Assembly: GCA_023920165.1 (NCBI GenBank)
Contig: CP089275.1
Span: 4,340,001-4,404,000 of the forward strand
Reading direction: 5' to 3'
DNA: 64,000 bases
DNA from: Curvularia clavata
Taxonomy: Eukaryota
Within the stretch, counting starts at the first letter, position 1. Each line of letters opens with the position of its first letter. Shown in pieces: positions 3,245 to 44,374 of this stretch. The notes under the pieces are model-generated. The model saw only the letters and a program-made list of their open reading frames with translations. It made no database searches and was not told where the DNA came from. The translations under genes were made by a program, and so were the position numbers.

Positions 3245-4592
3245 GGTGTATAGTAAGGAAGAGGTACTTGAAGATAAGAGGTTATATGTGGAATGAGTAT
3301 ATGGAAGTTAAGGAGTTGAATATCTGGGGAGCAGTTGTCTATCTGTTGAGGAAAGGGGAGAGAAAAAGGGTTTGGGTGCAACTGGAGCCAAAAATATAGG
3401 AGCGGGAGAAGCTGGACGAGCAAACGAAATCACAGTGGTGTTGACCGTAAGGATATCCTGGCGTTTGCTGGCTGGTAAGATTTGCTCGTGTGACGGTGGA
3501 TAATACTACGGTGAAGCTACCCTCCTTGCCTGTTTCGATATCCATTGGCTGTTTGTACTGACAAAGTAGGTAGCATTGCTTTCAAAATTCTGGTCAGGCA
3601 CTATGTCTGCCTACTACATCCACGTAATTGACGCAATTTATTGATCTAAGCAAACGGACCAATGCTATAATGAACACAACTTCCTCTTGTCTACTTCTTG
3701 CTAAGAGCGGTAAGTGAGCGGTCGAAAGCATAACGAACGGCAAGTACGTATTGATAAGAGTAACGTGATCTGACAGCCTAGGGTCATAGGGGATCTGCGA
3801 ACGAAGTCCCCTTCTAAGAGTGATCCAGGATGTCACATTTTCTGACACTTTAACTGACCCAAATCATTGCATTCAATTGGCTTCAGTTCTAGCGCCCTCT
3901 GATGCTCGTATTAGCGCTGGTGGTAATCTCTATCATAGTATCACTGTCGATCGCGTTGTCAGAGCCTCATCTGGGATAGGCGGCTGAGATATTGTCTTTA
4001 TAATCTGCTGCGGCCGAACCCTCTGCCGCACTGTTTTGTGTCGAATTTCGAACTTACTCTAATGAATGAGCGGAGTATGCGGTCGACAGTATCTCACGCC
4101 CCATTGAGTCGTCACTAGTTTCTGTGATTCTCAAGACTAATGTCATCTTAACCCCCACAACAACAAGCGCTGGACGTGGCACAATCAGTATCTCTTAATC
4201 ACAGAAAAGTTTAACCAACTTTAAAAAATATCCCCAATTGTTCCGATATGCTCACGGGTTCTGTGATGACCCCCAAGTCGCGATCATATCTGTACGTTTT
4301 TGGAAAAAATAGTATGGATTGCAGACTCCAGATCTTGATTGAATTATGTGGAGTGTGAAAGCACGCCACTGCCCACTTGCAGATGCGATTGACTCTACTT
4401 TTCCAGTCAAAAAAAAGAAAAAAAGTTTCACGCAAGGCGTTCATCATCATGATGCGTAGCTCACCGGTAGTCCGTATTATAAAGTTATATGGTATATGCA
4501 ACAGCGTAGCCCGACGCTCGTCACGCTCGCTCGCAGTGGCATCTCGTCATATCCTATGCAAATGCAGATACTCGTCAACATTTCTTCGGCCG

Positions 4593-13149: not shown

Positions 13150-13268
13150 ACATACGACCATAGGCTCGAGGAAGCAGGATTCCCCGTTCGATCAATCATA
13201 CTTAAGCTCGAGACCGGTGGACTAGTAGTCAGGTGGGTGACCACTGGCGAATCCCCACTGTCGTATGT
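13150..13268 (+). rRNA. Dispersed 5S rRNA gene (divergent isotype)
   Basis: 119 nt ACATACGACCATAGG...TAGTAGTCAGGTGGGTGACCACTGGCGAATCCCCACTGTCGTATGT; helix I ACATACGAC/GTCGTATGT; followed by Pol III T-runs. Confidence 0.95.
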
Positions 13269-13283
13269 TTTTGCACTTTTTTT
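13268..13283 (+). terminator. RNA polymerase III terminator (T-runs) of the 5S gene
   Basis: TTTTT directly at the 5S 3' end, followed by a second longer T-run. Confidence 0.75.
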
Positions 13284-33164: not shown

Positions 33165-36100
33165 ATGGCTTGGATTGAAATCGAAGAGCAGCACGAGGAC
33201 TACTTCTTGTCAGGCGATGAGAAGCCGATTGATCCCATATTAAACGGAGATGACAAGGAAATTGAACAGGCCAAACAGCAAGACCGTGAATCGGACGAAG
33301 AGTCAGACGAAGATCCAGATGCTGCGCGTGGACATGGCCCTGCGACAAGCATAGAGAAACGCAGGGCACAAAACAGTATCATGAGAGCTTTTGCTGCTAA
33401 CATCAGTGCGATCCTGACACAGAGCGAAGTCGAAGATGCTGCTGCGAAGAGTGCCAAAGAAGAGCAACTCTCAATTCGCGACATCCTTGCGAAACAAGAA
33501 ACAACAGTCCGCATCACGAACCCTCGCGACTACCAGACTGAGTTATTTCAGAGGGCAAAGGACGAAAACCTGATTGCAGTACTAGATACTGGATCCGGAA
33601 AGACACATATAGCAACTCTTCTATTGCGGCACGTTTTAGACCTAGAGCTTGACCGACGGGCCAAGGGCAATGCTCCCAAGATAGCGTTTTTTCTCGTAAG
33701 GCCATCGAAGCATTTCTCACGTATGCACCTAACACTTTCAGGTCGACTCGGTCAATCTTGTTTTCCAACAAGCAAATGTCTTGCGCTGCGGTCTCGACCA
33801 GAATGTCGAAGGAATATGTGGCTCAATGGGTGCATCACTATGGTCAAAGTCAACTTGGCAGAGCCACTTTGAGAAGAACATGGTCATAGTCTGCACAGCA
33901 GAGGTTCTTGTTCAGTGCATGATGCACTCTTTCATCACCATGGCCCAGATAAATCTCCTTGTATTTGACGAGGCTCATCACGCCAAGAACAATCACCCTT
34001 ACGCTCGTCTCATGAAGGACTATTACATACATGAAACCGACTTTGCGAAAAGGCCCCGTATTTTTGGAATGACGGCATCTCCTGTGGATACGAAAGGGTT
34101 ATCTGAAGACCATATCAAAGAGGCTGCTAGAGATCTGGAGAAGCTACTTGATGCCAGGATCGCCACAACCGCTGAGAGCACACTCGCTTCAAATAGTATT
34201 AGCCGCCCGCAAGAAGAAGTTGCAACATACTCTCAGTTGGAGGAAGATTATGAGACACCATTGCACAAAACGATAAAAGCCAGATTTGGAGACATGGATG
34301 CCTTCAACAAGTACTTCCTCGCATCAAAACGACATGGGAGGGAACTCGGACGTTGGGCTTCTGACATGTACTGGTCTTTTGCTTTTACTGATGAACAAAG
34401 TCGTAAACTTGAGCAAAGGGAGCGTTTGAAGCACACAAAGGCTCGCCCCGGTGAGGTGAAGGACTGGGATGCTAAATTGAAGCGCCTGCAGGAGGCATCT
34501 GAGTTTGTTCAACAGTTTGATTTCAACGCGTGCACTCTCAGCGATCAAGACGTGAGCTCTAAGGTCCAGAAACTTCATTACTGGCTCAACCTGTATTACG
34601 AGCGCAGTGATGAGGCTCGTTGTATCGTCTTTGTTGAACAGCGACAGACGGCGCGTCTGCTGCAGCTCATCTTCTCCCACATTGGTGGTCCACACCTGCG
34701 CTGCAGTGTCCTTGTTGGTGTCAACACCCGCGAGAATGAGCAGAGCATATCACTTCGCAATCAGATCCTCACTGTGGCCAAGTTTCGACGCGGAGAACTC
34801 AATTGCCTCTTTGCCACCTCTGTTGCCGAGGAAGGCCTAGACATCCCTCAATGCAATCTGGTCGTACGGTTCGATCTCTATCGCACTATGATTGGGTACG
34901 TGCAGTCTCGTGGCCGCGCGAGGCATCGAAATTCGAAATATCTGCACATGATTGAAGAAGGTAATCATGATCATGCGGAACGAGTCATGGATGTCAAAAT
35001 CGATGAGCAAATCATGAGAAAGTTCTGTCAAGAGCTTCCGCAAGACCGTCACATCGATGAATACGACAAAGATGGGATTGACCTGTTGACGTTTGAGGAT
35101 AGGCTGTTCCCAAGTCTCATCACAAAGTCCGGCGCGAAGCTCTCATTTCGTTCAAGTTTGGCCGTTCTGGCTCATTTCGTTGCGACTTTGCCTGGACCCG
35201 ACAGACAAACCATGTCACAGCCCACGTACGTTATCTGCCCTGATGTAAATTCCAGGGCATTGGACTCCCAGCAACGTGGCTTCGTGGCTGAAGTAGTATT
35301 GCCAGAATATTCTCCGGTAACTTCAGTCATCGGTGACGTGCAGAGCAGAAAAGCGATTGCCAAGTGTTCGGCAGCATACAAAGCGTGCCTCGAATTGTAC
35401 GAAAAGGGGTATCTAGATGAGAACCTACTTCCCACAACTTTCCGGCGTTTACCAGCTGGGAGGAATGCTCTATTAGCACTCAGTGAAAAGAAGAAGGGTA
35501 TGTATCCTATGCTGATCAAACCCGAGTTTTGGAAGGTTGGACGAGGTTCGGTTCCTGACTCCCTCCATCTCACCGTTGTCAATCTTGACGCTGGCCTCGA
35601 CCGACCCCATCAGCCCATGGGTCTTCTCACCCGCAAAAGATTTCCAAGCATTCCCGAATTCCCAATCTACCTCACCGATGGCAGGCGTTCCAACATAGTT
35701 TCTCATTCTTGTGTGGTCTCGCTCCCTGTTTCTGCAGAGATGCTAGATCTCATCACAACGTTCACCTTGCGGATATACAAAGACGTATACAACAAGGAGT
35801 ATGAGAACAGCGTTCAGAACATATCGTACTGGGTTGTGCCAGTCGTTCAAGATCGAATATCCTCCATCTCATCCGTGACTGCGCTCGACCAGATTCTGGA
35901 CATGGACCAAATACGCAAGGTCTCGAACCAACCCTCGTGGAAATGGACCCCAGATACCAAGCCGGAGGATCTGATAGATCGGTACTTTGTCGATCTTGGA
36001 CACGGAGGACGACGCTACTATTCTAACCGTCTTGCACCTCACCTAAAACCGCAGGACCCTGTTCCAAAAGGTCTTGCACGCCAAGGACACAAGTTCATGA

Positions 36101-38121
36101 ACAGTATCCTCGACTATAGTGACAGCACATGGACGAGAAGCAGGAACATAACGAAGTGGAACCAAGCTCAGCCTGTTCTCGAGGTAGAGAGGATCCCTTT
36201 CCGTCGAAATCACCTCGCCGCTGTGGAAGATAAAGAGAAAGGCGAACTGGACGACCTGAAGGCATATGTCTGCCCAGAACCTCTGCAAATATCCAATGTA
36301 GGTCTATCGTTTCTTCTGTGTCTAACCATCCAAGCTATCGACTCTGACAATCTAGATTGCGACACCATTCGTAGTCATGTGTTATGTGCTCCCCGCCATC
36401 ATCCATCGATTCGAGAGTTACCTCATCGCACTGGAAGCCTGCAAAGTCTTGGATCTGAGCGTTAGACCAGCACTTGCCTTGGAGGCTCTGACGAAGGATT
36501 CTGAAAACTCCGGGGAGCACGATGAAGAGAAAATCAACTTCAAGAGTGGCATGGGTCCAAACTACGAGCGGTGCGTCAATCCTTTATACAAATCAGCAAA
36601 ATCTAATAGTGAGATTTAGTTTGGAATTCCTCGGTGACTGCTTTCTGAAGATGGCAACTTCTCTGTCTGTCTTTGTGCAACAGCCAGATGAGAACGAATT
36701 TGAGTTCCATGTTCGTCGTATGGATATGCTCTGCAACAAGAACCTCATGGAGACTGCAGTGGGGAAGAAGAAAGTCACTGCTGCCGATGGTACAGAGCAG
36801 GATCTGCAACTGTACAAATACATTCGCACGGAATCATTCTCTCGGTATGTGAAGTTGAAAGAAGATTCGATAGTCTAAACTAATTTACAACAGTCGCACG
36901 TGGTATCCCGAGGGTCTGAAGCTGCTCAAGGGCAAAGGCGCGAACAAATCCCAAGACGACTGGCTCAGGCTCACGCACAATCTGGGAGACAAGAGCATAG
37001 CTGACGTATGCGAGGCATTCATCGGAGCAGCACTACAAGAGCATTATAACGGTGGTCCGTGGAAATCTGCTGACTGGGACGAAGCGGTAAAGGCAGTCAA
37101 GCTCTTTGCCAACAGCCCAGACCATCCCATGTCAAAGTGGTCCGACTACTATGCAGCATATCAAAAGCCAAAATATCAGGTCGCAGAGGCCAGCGCAGCG
37201 ATGCTCGATATGGCTCGGAAGATCGAGATGAAGCATCCGTACCACTTCAAGTACCCTCGCCTTCTCCGATCAGCATTCGCCCATCCTTCATATCCATATA
37301 TGTACGAGAGCATACCCAACTACCAACGCCTTGAATTCGCCGGCGATGCACTCCTTGACATGGCATTCATCACACATCTCTACTACCGGTATCCCGACAA
37401 AGACCCGCAGTGGCTCACTGAACACAAGACGCCCATGGTCTCCAACAAGTTCCTCGGCGCCCTCTGTGTCAAGCTTGGCTGGCACATTCACATCAAGCAA
37501 AATACGGCGACTCTCACCAACCAGATCCGGGACTATGTACTCGAGGTGGAAGAAGCCGAGCGCGAAGCCCGCGGCGCCGTCGACTACTGGGTCACCATCA
37601 GCGAGCCGCCCAAGTGCCTCGCCGACGTCATCGAAGCCTACGTCGCTGCTATGTTTGTAGATGCAGAATTCGATTTTAGCGTCGTCCAGCGCTTCTTTGA
37701 CATGCACCTGAAGCCTTTCTTCCTCGATATGACGCTCGAGGCTTACGAAAACTTTGCTTCGAATCACCCGACCACACGCCTGAGTCGCTTGCTAACAATC
37801 AACTTTGGATGCTCGGACTGGCGCATGGGCGCACTAGAGACCGAGACGCTGATTCCGGGAAAGGGAAAGGCGATTGCGGCGATGGTGATGATTCATGGCA
37901 AAGTGTGGTTTTACTCGCTGGGGCAGAGTGGAAGGTATGCGCGTGTTAGGGCGAGTCAGGCTGCGCTGGAGAAGTTGGAGGGGCTCCCGCCGTATCAATT
38001 TCGGCATGCATATGGGTGTGATTGTGTGGATGAGGAGGTGAGCGGAGATAAGTTGTCGAATGAGGCGGTGGCAAGGGCCAAGGAGGAGCAGATGCGGGAG
38101 GCGGTTGGGCTGAGTATCTAA
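33165..38121 (+). CDS. DCL1: Dicer-like protein 1
   Basis: PRDYQ..DTGSGKT, DEAH helicase, [17 protein letters not shown], Dicer dimerisation region, RNase IIIa ERLEFLGD, RNase IIIb QRLEFAGD, C-terminal dsRBD with CDC; about four introns. Confidence 0.93.
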
Positions 38122-41243: not shown

Positions 41244-42375
41244 TCATCCACTCATCTCCACGTCCTGCGCTTTGCGCTTCACCCCACCCTCGCTGCTCTC
41301 CATTTGTCCTTGGAACTTGGCCTGGACGGCTTCGAGCAGGACTTCCTTGACTACTGCGAGGCTGCCTACAGCCGCATGTGTGGCTCCTTCAATCAGCGCC
41401 TCGGGCTCTGCGCCAACATCTCCCTTCATCCACATCTCGGTGATTTCGTCTCTTGAAGCCAAATATCCCACTACGCATGCTGCCACCACCTCCTTGTGTT
41501 CCGCAGGACAAGGGTCCAGTATCCTAGCCAGCTCCTGCTCATTTTTCGATGATGGATTCCGTACCAGTGCTGCCACGCCACCACATACTACATCCACGCA
41601 ATCAATCCCTGCGTCGGTTATGGCCGCGCTGGCAACAGTTATGCACCCTGCCAAAACATTCAGCAGACCCCAGCCGCTTCCAATCGCACTGCCTTCGCTT
41701 GCCAGATCCCCCCACCAGCCATCTTCATCGCCCTCGAGAATCGTGACTACAACCTCCACGCCACTCTTGGGCCATCTTTCGCCAATGATGACGCCTCGTA
41801 ATGCCGTCTCTAAATGCACTCCCAGATCACGTTCTGTTGCGTCGCGTAGATAACCTCGCCGATGCCGTGTCGCAAACGGCGCAAACTTGACAGTAGTGGT
41901 AAGGAGGAGTGACGGACTAAAGGGCGCGCTGCGAGGTAGGGGCTTTGGACCTTGTATCGACGCCGTGATCTTCAGCGATGAAGTTGGTGCGATCAAACTC
42001 GTTTTGGGCGCAAGCGAAGACGATGGTATCTCAAGGTACGCAGATCCAGACGCAGAAGGTATGATTGATGTTTGGAGGACTGCGACGAATGGTTAGCAAG
42101 CGAAATCAGCGTAGTGGGTGCTTGCTGAGCACCACGAAGCTAGTGAATTGCTCCCTCGGAGCAAAACACCTCAATTGAGCGATCGTGTTGCTCCTAGAAG
42201 CACCGATGGAGGAGCTTGGCAACTCACAGATCTTGCGGAGCTCATTCGGGCCTCTTGATCTTGTCGGCCGCAACTTTTCGACATATTGTGGCTCTCTAAT
42301 AGTGCGCGCGAATATCGGCGCGCTTGTTCCGCCACTGGGCGCATTGTTTCTTCGCTTGTCGATATTTGCAGCCAT
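41244..42375 (-). CDS. MTR3: Exosome RNase PH-like subunit Mtr3
   Basis: DKRRNNAPSGGT..ELRKI|FLQTSIIPSASGSAYLE, GPKPLPRSAPFS, VKFAPFA, ERWPKSGVEVVVTILE, DAGIDCVD; intron 42080-42227. Confidence 0.88.
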
Positions 42376-42589
42376 TTTGCGTGCGTGGGGTTATGTGAAT
42401 GTTGGTGTTGCTGGGATTGTGGATGATCTCATGGTGGTAGACGCGCAAATTATGCATGACTAAGCTGCAGATCCGCGCCAAGAGTTCGTTCCTCAAGCTC
42501 AATTTTCCTTCGCGTCTGGACGAACTTTCTTTCTCACCACACTGCAACGCTCGAGGTAAGCCACCACCCCATTTTCTTCGCACCCAATC

Positions 42590-42666
42590 TTTCATGATTG
42601 ATACCCTTGAAATACGTTCTTGTGATCTCAAATGAGCTTTGAACACATGCACCACCCTCTGATCTC
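42590..42666 (+). ncRNA. snR55: Box C/D snoRNA snR55/U33 orthologue (18S Um1269, yeast numbering)
   Basis: Box C-like ATGATTG at 42594; box D CTGA at 42659; guide CATGCACCACC complementary to 18S GGUGGUGCAUG; the D+5 rule selects the U equivalent to U1269. Confidence 0.85.
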
Positions 42667-42762
42667 GTCTTTATCAGCTTCTGGTTGTACGACAAGCTTT
42701 GCGACTATAGCTGACCTGATTTCAGATGATAGAGCACCCACAATCTCGCAACAGTGCGCAGT

Positions 42763-42985
42763 CACTACGATGAGCCTGCCCGCAATATGCTAGCGACGCA
42801 TCTCAGTTGTCGGTTGTCTAGTCGCGCAGGGTGGCTCGAGCGATTGGATATGAGCATGGAATCCACTTGGACATGGAGAGTTTCGCTGTGCATAAGCTGC
42901 TATTTCAGCATGTTTGTTTGAGAACTCCAGTCCAATGTGGGCCATGGTTCATCTGCACTCCCTGCGAGACCGACCCTGAGCGTAT
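42763..42985 (+). ncRNA. Unassigned long intronic C/D-like structured RNA A
   Basis: ACGATGA at 42767 and CTGA at 42976, TACG/CGTA near the ends, two internal hairpins; lies in intron 2 of the snoRNA host. Confidence 0.5.
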
Positions 42986-43066
42986 CCATGCTATACTAAC
43001 CTACTGTTAGCAGCAAGCTCAGGCACTAACAATTGGTAAGTCGTCTCCTGCACTCCTACAACCTTC

Positions 43067-43147
43067 TTTCATGATGAACGTATTATTTCAGTTCTGCTTC
43101 CGAACTACAATGTGGAAGCTATATACCGCTTACCTTTATCTGATATC
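43067..43147 (+). ncRNA. snR61: Box C/D snoRNA snR61/U38 orthologue (25S Am1133, yeast numbering)
   Basis: Box C ATGATGA at 43071; D' CCGA at 43100; box D CTGA at 43140; guide CAGTTCTGCTT complementary to 25S AAGCAGAACUG. Confidence 0.87.
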
Positions 43148-43305
43148 GCTTTACTCTTTGCTTGTTTGATCAGCACTTCTCATAGACACTGCTGACAATT
43201 CAATCAGACCGCACAGCTACACAGCACAGCTCATCTCATGTATTCTGTTCAATGGTAAGCACTTCAACACCCTCCCCGCGCGCTAGGAAGAAAACTAGTC
43301 TATCC

Positions 43306-43521
43306 ATTCAATGACATCTGTTGCCGGGTCACCCTCCCACACTCTACTGGTCTTGACTGGAATGACGGGTTGTGGAGTTGCGGCACTGGCTTGTCCAGCG
43401 CTGCGTAATTGTGGTCTTTGAGCTGAAAGTTATGGCAGTCCGTCTTGGGCTGCCGCAACCAGAGGCCAGGTGATAGGGGTTGATTTAACACGGCTTTCTG
43501 AGCACAACGCCTTCTCTGAAT
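43306..43521 (+). ncRNA. Unassigned long intronic structured RNA B (C/D-like)
   Basis: ATTCA/TGAAT terminal complementarity, degenerate C-like ATGAC, terminal CTGA and several GC-rich stems; lies in the 309-nt intron 4 of the host. Confidence 0.5.
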
Positions 43522-44374
43522 ATTTTACGGGATTACAGCGTGTGCATGACTAACGGCGCTCAGATCACAAAGTGCAATAACAGCTTTACGGCTCGGCCCA
43601 TGAATGACACCGAGGGGTAGGATGATGGGAGTGCGTGGATTGGTCAGTAGCCTAGATGTAATCAATCACCTCGAAACGCGATTGCCTGTTCAAAATATGC
43701 ATACATGTTACGTTCCGTGTTACGTCTGTGTTCCTCAACGAGACGTTTGTAGCTGTGCTACGTGATCGGCTCCACAAGCCAACTGTTAGTACCGTTCGTT
43801 GTAGTTGCGTCCACTGGCTATGGTATCTGCCACACGACCTTGCAATGACGGGCGCATGGATACTGAAGCTCGGTGCTCTGTAAAGTGTATGTATTGGCGT
43901 TTCTACTCCGTCGAATTTCCGGGGATACGTACCTCCTGTCCATCATTGCTCTGAAACGGGCATTACTAGTCAGCTTGGCTTAGCTTCACGCCCCCGGGCA
44001 TCTTGCAAAGTGTCCGAAACACAACGATAAACGTTCACCATATTGTCAGGCCCGCGCATCGAATCCATTGACTGGTGCTATTGCTGCCAGACGCAGTCGA
44101 CCATCGACGGCTCATTTAAACTTTAGGGCAGCCTTGGCGACTGGTCCCTAGGCCAAGCCCGTACCGGAGTTTACCAAAGACGCGCAACCCTTCCATTGAT
44201 CCTACAACCCACTCTCTTCTCGTCGCACACCTTACGGCCGATTGCACTTCTCCCCTCACGGTATAGGGGAGAACAGAGCATCATTGTTTCCTGGCGCAGC
44301 CGGGCACCCTGGCAGGTCTTAATTGACCACGGTTTCAAAGGGACCGATCCTTATCTGGTACCCGTCCTACACGA

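Follow-up and report, generated by a model that had tools for sequence, protein, structure and literature searches.

A cluster II snoRNA host gene of Curvularia clavata with a CD53-type long box C/D RNA and its predicted target in 25S rRNA

In the Euascomycetes the snoRNAs of cluster II are intronic and snR57 has been lost from all of these fungi, according to the available part of Luo 2013 (PMC3596301). The cluster has a spliced non-coding host with one snoRNA per intron, snR55 followed by snR61, and the same part of that paper describes no fourth member. In N. crassa both guides are intronic, and alternative splicing is found in hosts of this kind (Liu 2009, PMC2780460).

The N. crassa RNA CD53 was cloned in the latter study as a Northern-positive RNA of 212 nt, listed as intergenic and reported as an orphan. 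The best target prediction for CD_53, 25S-3500, was judged not unambiguous and the RNA was left an orphan (Canzler 2018, PMC5824354). The same paper also gives 25S-3500 as the pseudouridine position of snR86, and the snR86 pseudouridine is yeast LSU 2314 (PMC2551606). Other long box C/D RNAs have been described. Human LSU-3797 has been assigned to the D' box of SNORD17, an RNA of 237 nt (Krogh 2016, PMC5027482), and snR4 and snR45/SNORD13 have their bulk between D' and C' (Sharma 2017, PMC5464676).

Here we investigate a locus of Curvularia clavata that resembles cluster II in its host and in the order of its guides, and differs from it in carrying a CD53-type RNA after snR61, in an intron of its own. 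The window analysed is a stretch of 64,000 nt (contig CP089275.1, positions 4,340,001 to 4,404,000, assembly GCA_023920165.1), and all coordinates are those of the window. The genome searched comprised 32.4 Mb in 8 contigs, with eukaryotic rDNA. The cluster, the loss of snR57 and CD53 as an orphan were already known, and the target site proposed below was weakly glimpsed in 2018. The D' register, the parallel with SNORD17 and the position of CD53 in the cluster are new relative to the literature found, which covered few subscription papers and in which no paper connects CD53 with SNORD17 or cluster II, or MTR3 with the host.

The host gene and its canonical guides

Evidence for transcripts comes from assembled contigs of 4 of 24 runs (X1, X9, X13 and X14), among the records listed. 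One of these four is RNA on record and three are RNA by guess; X1 and X9 carry the splice joint of the neighbouring MTR3 gene, with its intron joined out. Rare variants are dropped from such contigs, and RNA ends and levels are not readable from them.

The host lies on the plus strand and had been annotated initially, from the sequence alone, with four introns. Donor, branch point and acceptor are indeed present in four segments (42556–42725, 42754–43010, 43036–43207 and 43255–43563), and the contigs show removal of three of them. Intron 1 (42556–42725) is joined across in one X13 record, the short side of the joint being 19 letters, and the first base of the spliced X13 record is 42535. Introns 3 (43036–43207) and 4 (43255–43563) are both joined out in X1 and X14, that is, in two studies, and X1 also has a form that retains intron 4. 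The joint of intron 2 is absent from the contigs of all four runs. Between introns 3 and 4 the contig joints delimit a non-coding exon of 47 nt (43208–43254), and the last exon (43564–43626) is closed by the end of X14 record 9. Upstream, the 180 nt from the MTR3 start codon to the first donor (42376–42555, unstranded) comprise, as read from the sequence, exon 1 of the host and the region of a shared promoter. No AUG frame of the predicted host RNAs exceeds 53 codons and this, together with the splice joints in the contigs, bears out the earlier description of the host as spliced and non-coding.

A spliced antisense transcript was also seen on the minus strand, in window 43563–44200, between the host and an ANP1-like gene. 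Its introns are at about 43878–43932 (X1) and 43651–43703 (X9), it may overlap the last exon of the host, and a search of it for a conserved coding frame came up empty.

Intron 1 contains a box C/D snoRNA of the snR55/SNORD33 type (42590–42666, plus strand), with a degenerate box C at 42594–42601, a guide at 42646–42656 and box D at 42659–42662. It scores 21.5 bits against the SNORD33 model, below the cut-off of 44. The D guide forms an 11-bp duplex with positions 1265–1275 of the organism's own 18S rRNA and is directed at U1267; this is the site of yeast Um1269 and the predicted target of the RNA. Of 10 matches to the snR55 pattern in the genome, one is the host locus, six are rDNA copies and three lie elsewhere; one of these three is without box C. 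A second 11-bp complement, between 42636–42646 of the RNA and 18S 761–771, is not conserved in the homologs viewed and is probably due to chance.

Intron 3 contains snR61 (43066–43146, plus strand; box C 43071–43077, D' 43100–43103, D 43140–43143), which occurs as a single copy in the genome. It scores 50.5 bits against RF00476, where the cut-off is 45, and forms a 12-bp duplex with the organism's own 25S rRNA directed at A1130, which we take to be the site of yeast Am1133. The initial placement of both guides therefore stands, given the 18S duplex of the one and the Rfam score of the other. A match to RF00474 (snR57) is absent from the genome among the 60 of 2887 candidates that were scored, in agreement with the earlier statement that no snR57 guide is present. 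The Rfam scan that had been proposed as a check gave a mixed answer: snR61 passed its cut-off, the snR55-type RNA fell below that of SNORD33, and CD53 and the long segments yielded no family at E up to 10 (region and two CD53 copies).

A metagenome scan with the snR61 pattern gave at least 120 loci, with flanks for 80, many of them not fungal. From position 1072 of locus L040 onward snR61 is duplicated in tandem in two near-identical introns, and CD53 is absent from the next 557 nt. Five loci (L022, L096, L101, L105 and L125) are compact clusters in which snR55 is preceded by one more box C/D RNA, possibly snR57, and CD53 has a short form of about 150 nt.

The segment between introns 1 and 3

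Between introns 1 and 3 there is an unspliced block of 310 nt (42726–43035, plus strand), in which a second intron carrying a long RNA had been proposed, so that long and canonical RNAs would alternate along the host. The intron-like signals at 42754–43010 consist of the donor GTGCGC, the branch point TACTAAC at 42994–43000 and an acceptor at 43010. Among 1022 tiles of the organism's own DNA the same pattern was found in 3 when defined strictly and in 25 when defined loosely. As signals of this quality are unlikely to be chance, the segment may be a retained intron or may involve an alternative acceptor. In X14 record 9 introns 3 and 4 are gone and intron 2 is kept, and the X13 record has lost intron 1 and kept most of intron 2. 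A relative's record in X9 shows 156 loose letters ahead of the final exon, close to the 168 that would be expected with the segment kept. Because contigs drop rare forms, these data show the retained form rather than an absence of splicing.

Is intron 2 nevertheless spliced, releasing a fourth RNA, a long box C/D RNA specific to the lineage? The branch point and acceptor are strong, as the strict count among the tiles indicates, there are C-like (42767–42773) and D-like (42976–42979) words at the ends, and the segment folds with a z of about -2.2 to -2.7. However, the 322-nt counterpart in locus L017 folds equally well (z -2.2 for both) and does not align to the segment, since 423 of 500 shuffles reach its score. 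In the X9 relative, 25 of the 104 listed positions of the segment are changed, against 24 of 331 in a coding piece of MTR3, and where both partners of a pair are listed, five pairs are broken and one is compensated. The C-like word sits 13 nt from the donor and the D-like word about 15 nt from the branch point, where the real snoRNAs have 30–38 and about 48 nt. The segment gave no guide of credible length against the RNAs tested, which were the organism's own rRNAs, 30 of 60 tRNA loci (about half on the wrong strand) and two snRNAs other than U1, U4 and U5. It has no blastn match in the at least 120 snR61-pattern loci, no second copy in the genome and no Rfam match at E up to 10. Box spacing, guide target, conservation and excision all set it apart from a box C/D snoRNA, and we consider its release as a fourth RNA distinctly improbable.

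Two other readings of the segment were also rejected. Neither an H box nor a terminal ACA was seen by eye in the fold, as an H/ACA RNA would have, and the relative's changes are spread 9/9/7 over the three codon positions (hand count), which argues against a small peptide.

The distance between snR55 and snR61 is a further difference from the usual cluster II: 407 nt here and 434 nt in L017, against 112–259 nt in 38 of 39 loci. We read the middle segment as lineage-specific, either a long exon or an empty intron that is retained or poorly spliced. Since it is unspliced in the contigs and its RNA is unsupported by homolog, credible target or structure, the host has three RNA-bearing introns and not four in alternation; the proposed long RNA of intron 2 is withdrawn and only that of intron 4 is supported.

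Neighbouring genes and the promoter

MTR3 encodes an exosome RNase PH subunit of 327 aa on the minus strand (41244–42375; exons 42375–42228 and 42079–41244). It has a Pfam RNase_PH domain and its best PDB match is MTR3 itself (8pel_F, E 7.5e-71), which confirms the divergent neighbour named by the initial annotation. Synteny was examined in 22 loci of more than 700 nt with snR55 and CD53, from which 4 with less than 900 nt upstream were dropped. MTR3 is head-to-head with the cluster in 12 of the 18 informative loci, at 44–67% protein identity (L009 and L081 being near-identical), and is missing from the other 6. The other flank of the host is an Anp1-family gene by Pfam, and of the 13 loci with about 3 kb of sequence, 8 have an ANP1-like gene on the downstream side. 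In L049 a tblastn match places the ANP1-like gene upstream, in the position of MTR3, and L012 also appears head-to-head with an ANP1-like gene, judged from a similar N-terminal frame. Together these two loci suggest a local inversion. Elsewhere in the window, 33826–38121 is presumably a Dicer-like gene, from helicase and RNase III motifs in its frames, about 3 kb from MTR3, and a dispersed 5S rRNA gene is found at 13150–13269.

The 180-nt gap makes a promoter common to the host and MTR3 plausible. Selection might even keep MTR3 in this divergent position, coupling the supply of snoRNAs to the exosome that trims them, as had been suggested. The shortness of the gap and the divergent MTR3 in two thirds of the informative loci speak for such coupling. 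Against it, the ANP1-like gene is about as conserved on the downstream side and replaces MTR3 upstream in L049, and a third of the loci lack MTR3 altogether. In a search for a shared 7-mer in the 9 promoter regions that could be delimited, the best word occurred in 5, and 40 of 100 shuffles reached at least 5. It would also be surprising for a core of nine subunits to be controlled through a single structural one. Coupling is therefore unproven, given the comparable conservation of the ANP1-like neighbour and the lack of a shared promoter motif, and we think it unlikely. In A. fumigatus and N. crassa, snoRNA and ribosomal protein genes are without a common motif in the available text of Diao 2014 (PMC4138321).

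The long RNA of intron 4 and its predicted target

The long RNA of intron 4 (43280–43504, plus strand) has a degenerate box C at 43285–43291, with two mismatches in this copy, a guide at 43302–43309, a D' box at 43311–43314 and box D at 43498–43501. A degenerate box near the 3' end, at about 43480–43486, is the probable C'. From box C to the end of box D it measures 217 nt, within the 200–300 nt of the CD53 family (Liu 2009, PMC2780460; Canzler 2018, PMC5824354). By eye it shares 15 identical bases with N. crassa CD53 at the guide and D' box and a common motif before box D, and this likeness identifies it as a member of the orphan box C/D family Nc CD53. In contrast to the published intergenic orphan, the copy here is intronic, in a spliced host within cluster II, with a fixed D' register and a degenerate box C. 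It is single in the genome; one further pattern match lacks the other features, and the control also gave one. In X14 there is a stand-alone 212-nt contig at 43289–43500, almost box to box, which hints weakly at a stable RNA; the contig has a depth of 25.4, whereas the spliced host record has 4.2, in contigs that cannot show ends or levels.

With an iterated profile CD53 was found in 42 of the 120 listed snR61-pattern loci, always on the same strand and 166–350 nt after the snR61 box C; the motif of box C plus guide was present downstream in 41 of the 120 and upstream, as a control, in 1 of the 120. In 33 of the 37 distinct homologs a single base separates the guide from a D'-like box, a feature that the search pattern did not select, although such homolog counts overstate independence because the homologs are related. 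The alignment consists of the window and 19 of the 20 near-complete matches, L015 having been dropped as a near-duplicate. There the guide of 8 nt shows little or no variation, as do box D and a loop at about 43441–43448, and two-sided changes occur in 26 of 34 predicted pairs. The helix between the stretch that follows D' and the one that precedes the degenerate box near the 3' end reaches -17.6 kcal/mol with true partners and -15.2 with swapped ones, none of 500 swaps attaining the true value, and this control too overstates independence by the relatedness of the homologs; shuffles give -14.8 kcal/mol, and 1 of 200 reaches the true value. The fold of the single sequence is insignificant (z -0.96), and its support comes from the alignment. 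We infer that box C is followed after 20 nt by D', then by some 165 nt of folded RNA, which probably include an internal k-turn at 43359–43365, and finally by C' and, 11 nt further on, D. The likeness to CD53 at both ends, the homologs after snR61 and the covariation uphold the earlier claim of a real long RNA in this intron.

The family is not universal. CD53 is absent within 700–900 nt in L014, L016 and L038 despite the presence of snR55 and snR61, and these AT-rich loci appear to be budding-yeast-like. It is also absent from L040 and L042 and, with 2–3 kb downstream covered, from ten basidiomycete-like loci, and six other basidiomycete-like loci carry the CD53 guide.

By the D'+5 rule the 8-nt guide points to U2288 of the organism's own 25S rRNA. 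This base is 26 nt after the G of the Gm2288 context and is therefore equated with yeast U2314. The target 8-mer occurs once in the organism's 18S and 25S rRNA, and the duplex of 8–9 bp is the best for CD53 among the RNAs tested; an 8-mer match to rRNA has a chance expectation of about 0.08, and a minimum guide duplex of 7–8 is cited in Sharma 2017 (PMC5464676). In 39 of 41 copies the position four bases upstream of the guide holds a G, which faces a C in the flank of the target.

In human rRNA a fully methylated pseudouridine at 3797 follows Gm3771 at this distance of 26, within the same sequence, and the counterpart of 3797 in a table of the same paper is a plain pseudouridine of yeast, which bears the number 2312 there (Taoka 2018, PMC6182160). 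S. pombe has a plain pseudouridine, 2402, at the equivalent site (Taoka 2015, PMC4605285). Nanopore data for C. thermophilum give about 90% of a pseudouridine-type signal, itself blind to methyl, in row 2276 (Wild 2025, PMC12723226), which we read as ct U2277 by a one-base offset. In the available parts of Kisonaite 2022 (PMC8789840), Wu 2021, SnoBIRD and PMC3025573 nothing was found on methylation at the CD53 target site. An additional pairing of 43368–43376 with 25S 2333–2340 was rejected, as those positions show covariation within CD53 itself.

SNORD17 (HBI-43; RF00567), which in human is hosted by SNX5, resembles CD53 in its length of about 237 nt, its intronic location, its D' guide and its target, the same uridine in the same rRNA context. 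Guide and fold of the two RNAs are presumably alike as well. As RF00567 does not detect the fungal RNA (own genome and two CD53 copies), CD53 is best described as working like SNORD17 and not as a member of that family. CD53 also shares with snR4 and snR45 the bulk between D' and C', and differs from them in having a canonical D' register and no 5' guide before box C. Its reading as an acetylation guide was rejected, as it has no guides flanking 18S C1280/C1773 (helix 34/45). Another N. crassa orphan, CD55, looks by eye complementary to 18S helix 34 on both of its sides (Liu 2009 supplement, PMC2780460), and may be an snR4-like acetylation guide.

We consider it likely that the three box C/D snoRNAs are released from a spliced host and that CD53 acts as a methylation guide in the manner of SNORD17, the middle segment being free of RNA. 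The non-coding host would be transcribed, presumably by Pol II, head-to-head with MTR3 and then spliced, and the snoRNAs would be freed from introns 1, 3 and 4. snR55 would then direct modification of 18S Um1269 and snR61 that of 25S Am1133 (yeast numbering). The guide before D' in CD53 would direct 2'-O-methylation of 25S U2314, with the folded RNA held between D' and C', and the middle 310 nt would be left as a long exon or a poorly spliced intron. Since U2314 is also a pseudouridine, a methylated pseudouridine would be expected in these fungi, as in human through SNORD17.

Could CD53 instead base-pair in the region of helix 70/71 and serve there as a platform or a chaperone of folding, in the manner of snR190, snR4 and snR45, with methylation absent or a side job? 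The large conserved domain between D' and C' recalls snR4 and snR45, the probable k-turn and the invariant loop have no canonical role, and the duplex is short. However, a strict D'+5 register on one uridine across the homologs is what a methylation guide predicts, the matching human base is methylated, CD53 has no complement to the acetylation sites of helix 34/45, and the budding-yeast-like loci do without it. We regard a chaperone as quite unlikely. Still less credence is given to the view that the 8-mer is aimed at a tRNA, snRNA or mRNA and matches rRNA by chance. The match is indeed short, with the chance expectation given above, and the scan covered part of the tRNA set (about half in the wrong orientation) and two snRNAs. 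Yet the 25S site gave the best duplex of all RNAs tested, it falls exactly on the base whose methylation in human is directed by a long D' guide, and the conserved G upstream of the guide faces the target-flank C. The SNORD17-like methylation guide is thus the reading that we retain.

A broader proposal is that CD53 and vertebrate SNORD17 share common ancestry as one ancient long box C/D family, which most fungi would have retained and budding and fission yeast would have lost, and whose 165-nt domain, with its extra k-turn and invariant loop, would have a role of its own, beyond the methyl, in folding the helix 69–71 region of the large subunit. Yeast-centred work would have missed such a family because of that loss. 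We hold this proposal to be speculative and rather unlikely.

The host gene itself is ordinary. A snoRNA family that has been an orphan since 2009 gains a probable target and a place as a conserved member of cluster II. The prediction is of a doubly modified LSU uridine in filamentous fungi, present in human and absent from both model yeasts. Three "Um sites that are in fact pseudouridine" are discarded in Wild 2025 (PMC12723226), and sites discarded in this way from fungal maps may include true double modification. If the ancient family were real, a filamentous fungus in which the gene can be deleted would offer the first genetic model of what SNORD17 does and of the sequence in which methylation and pseudouridylation take place on a single base.
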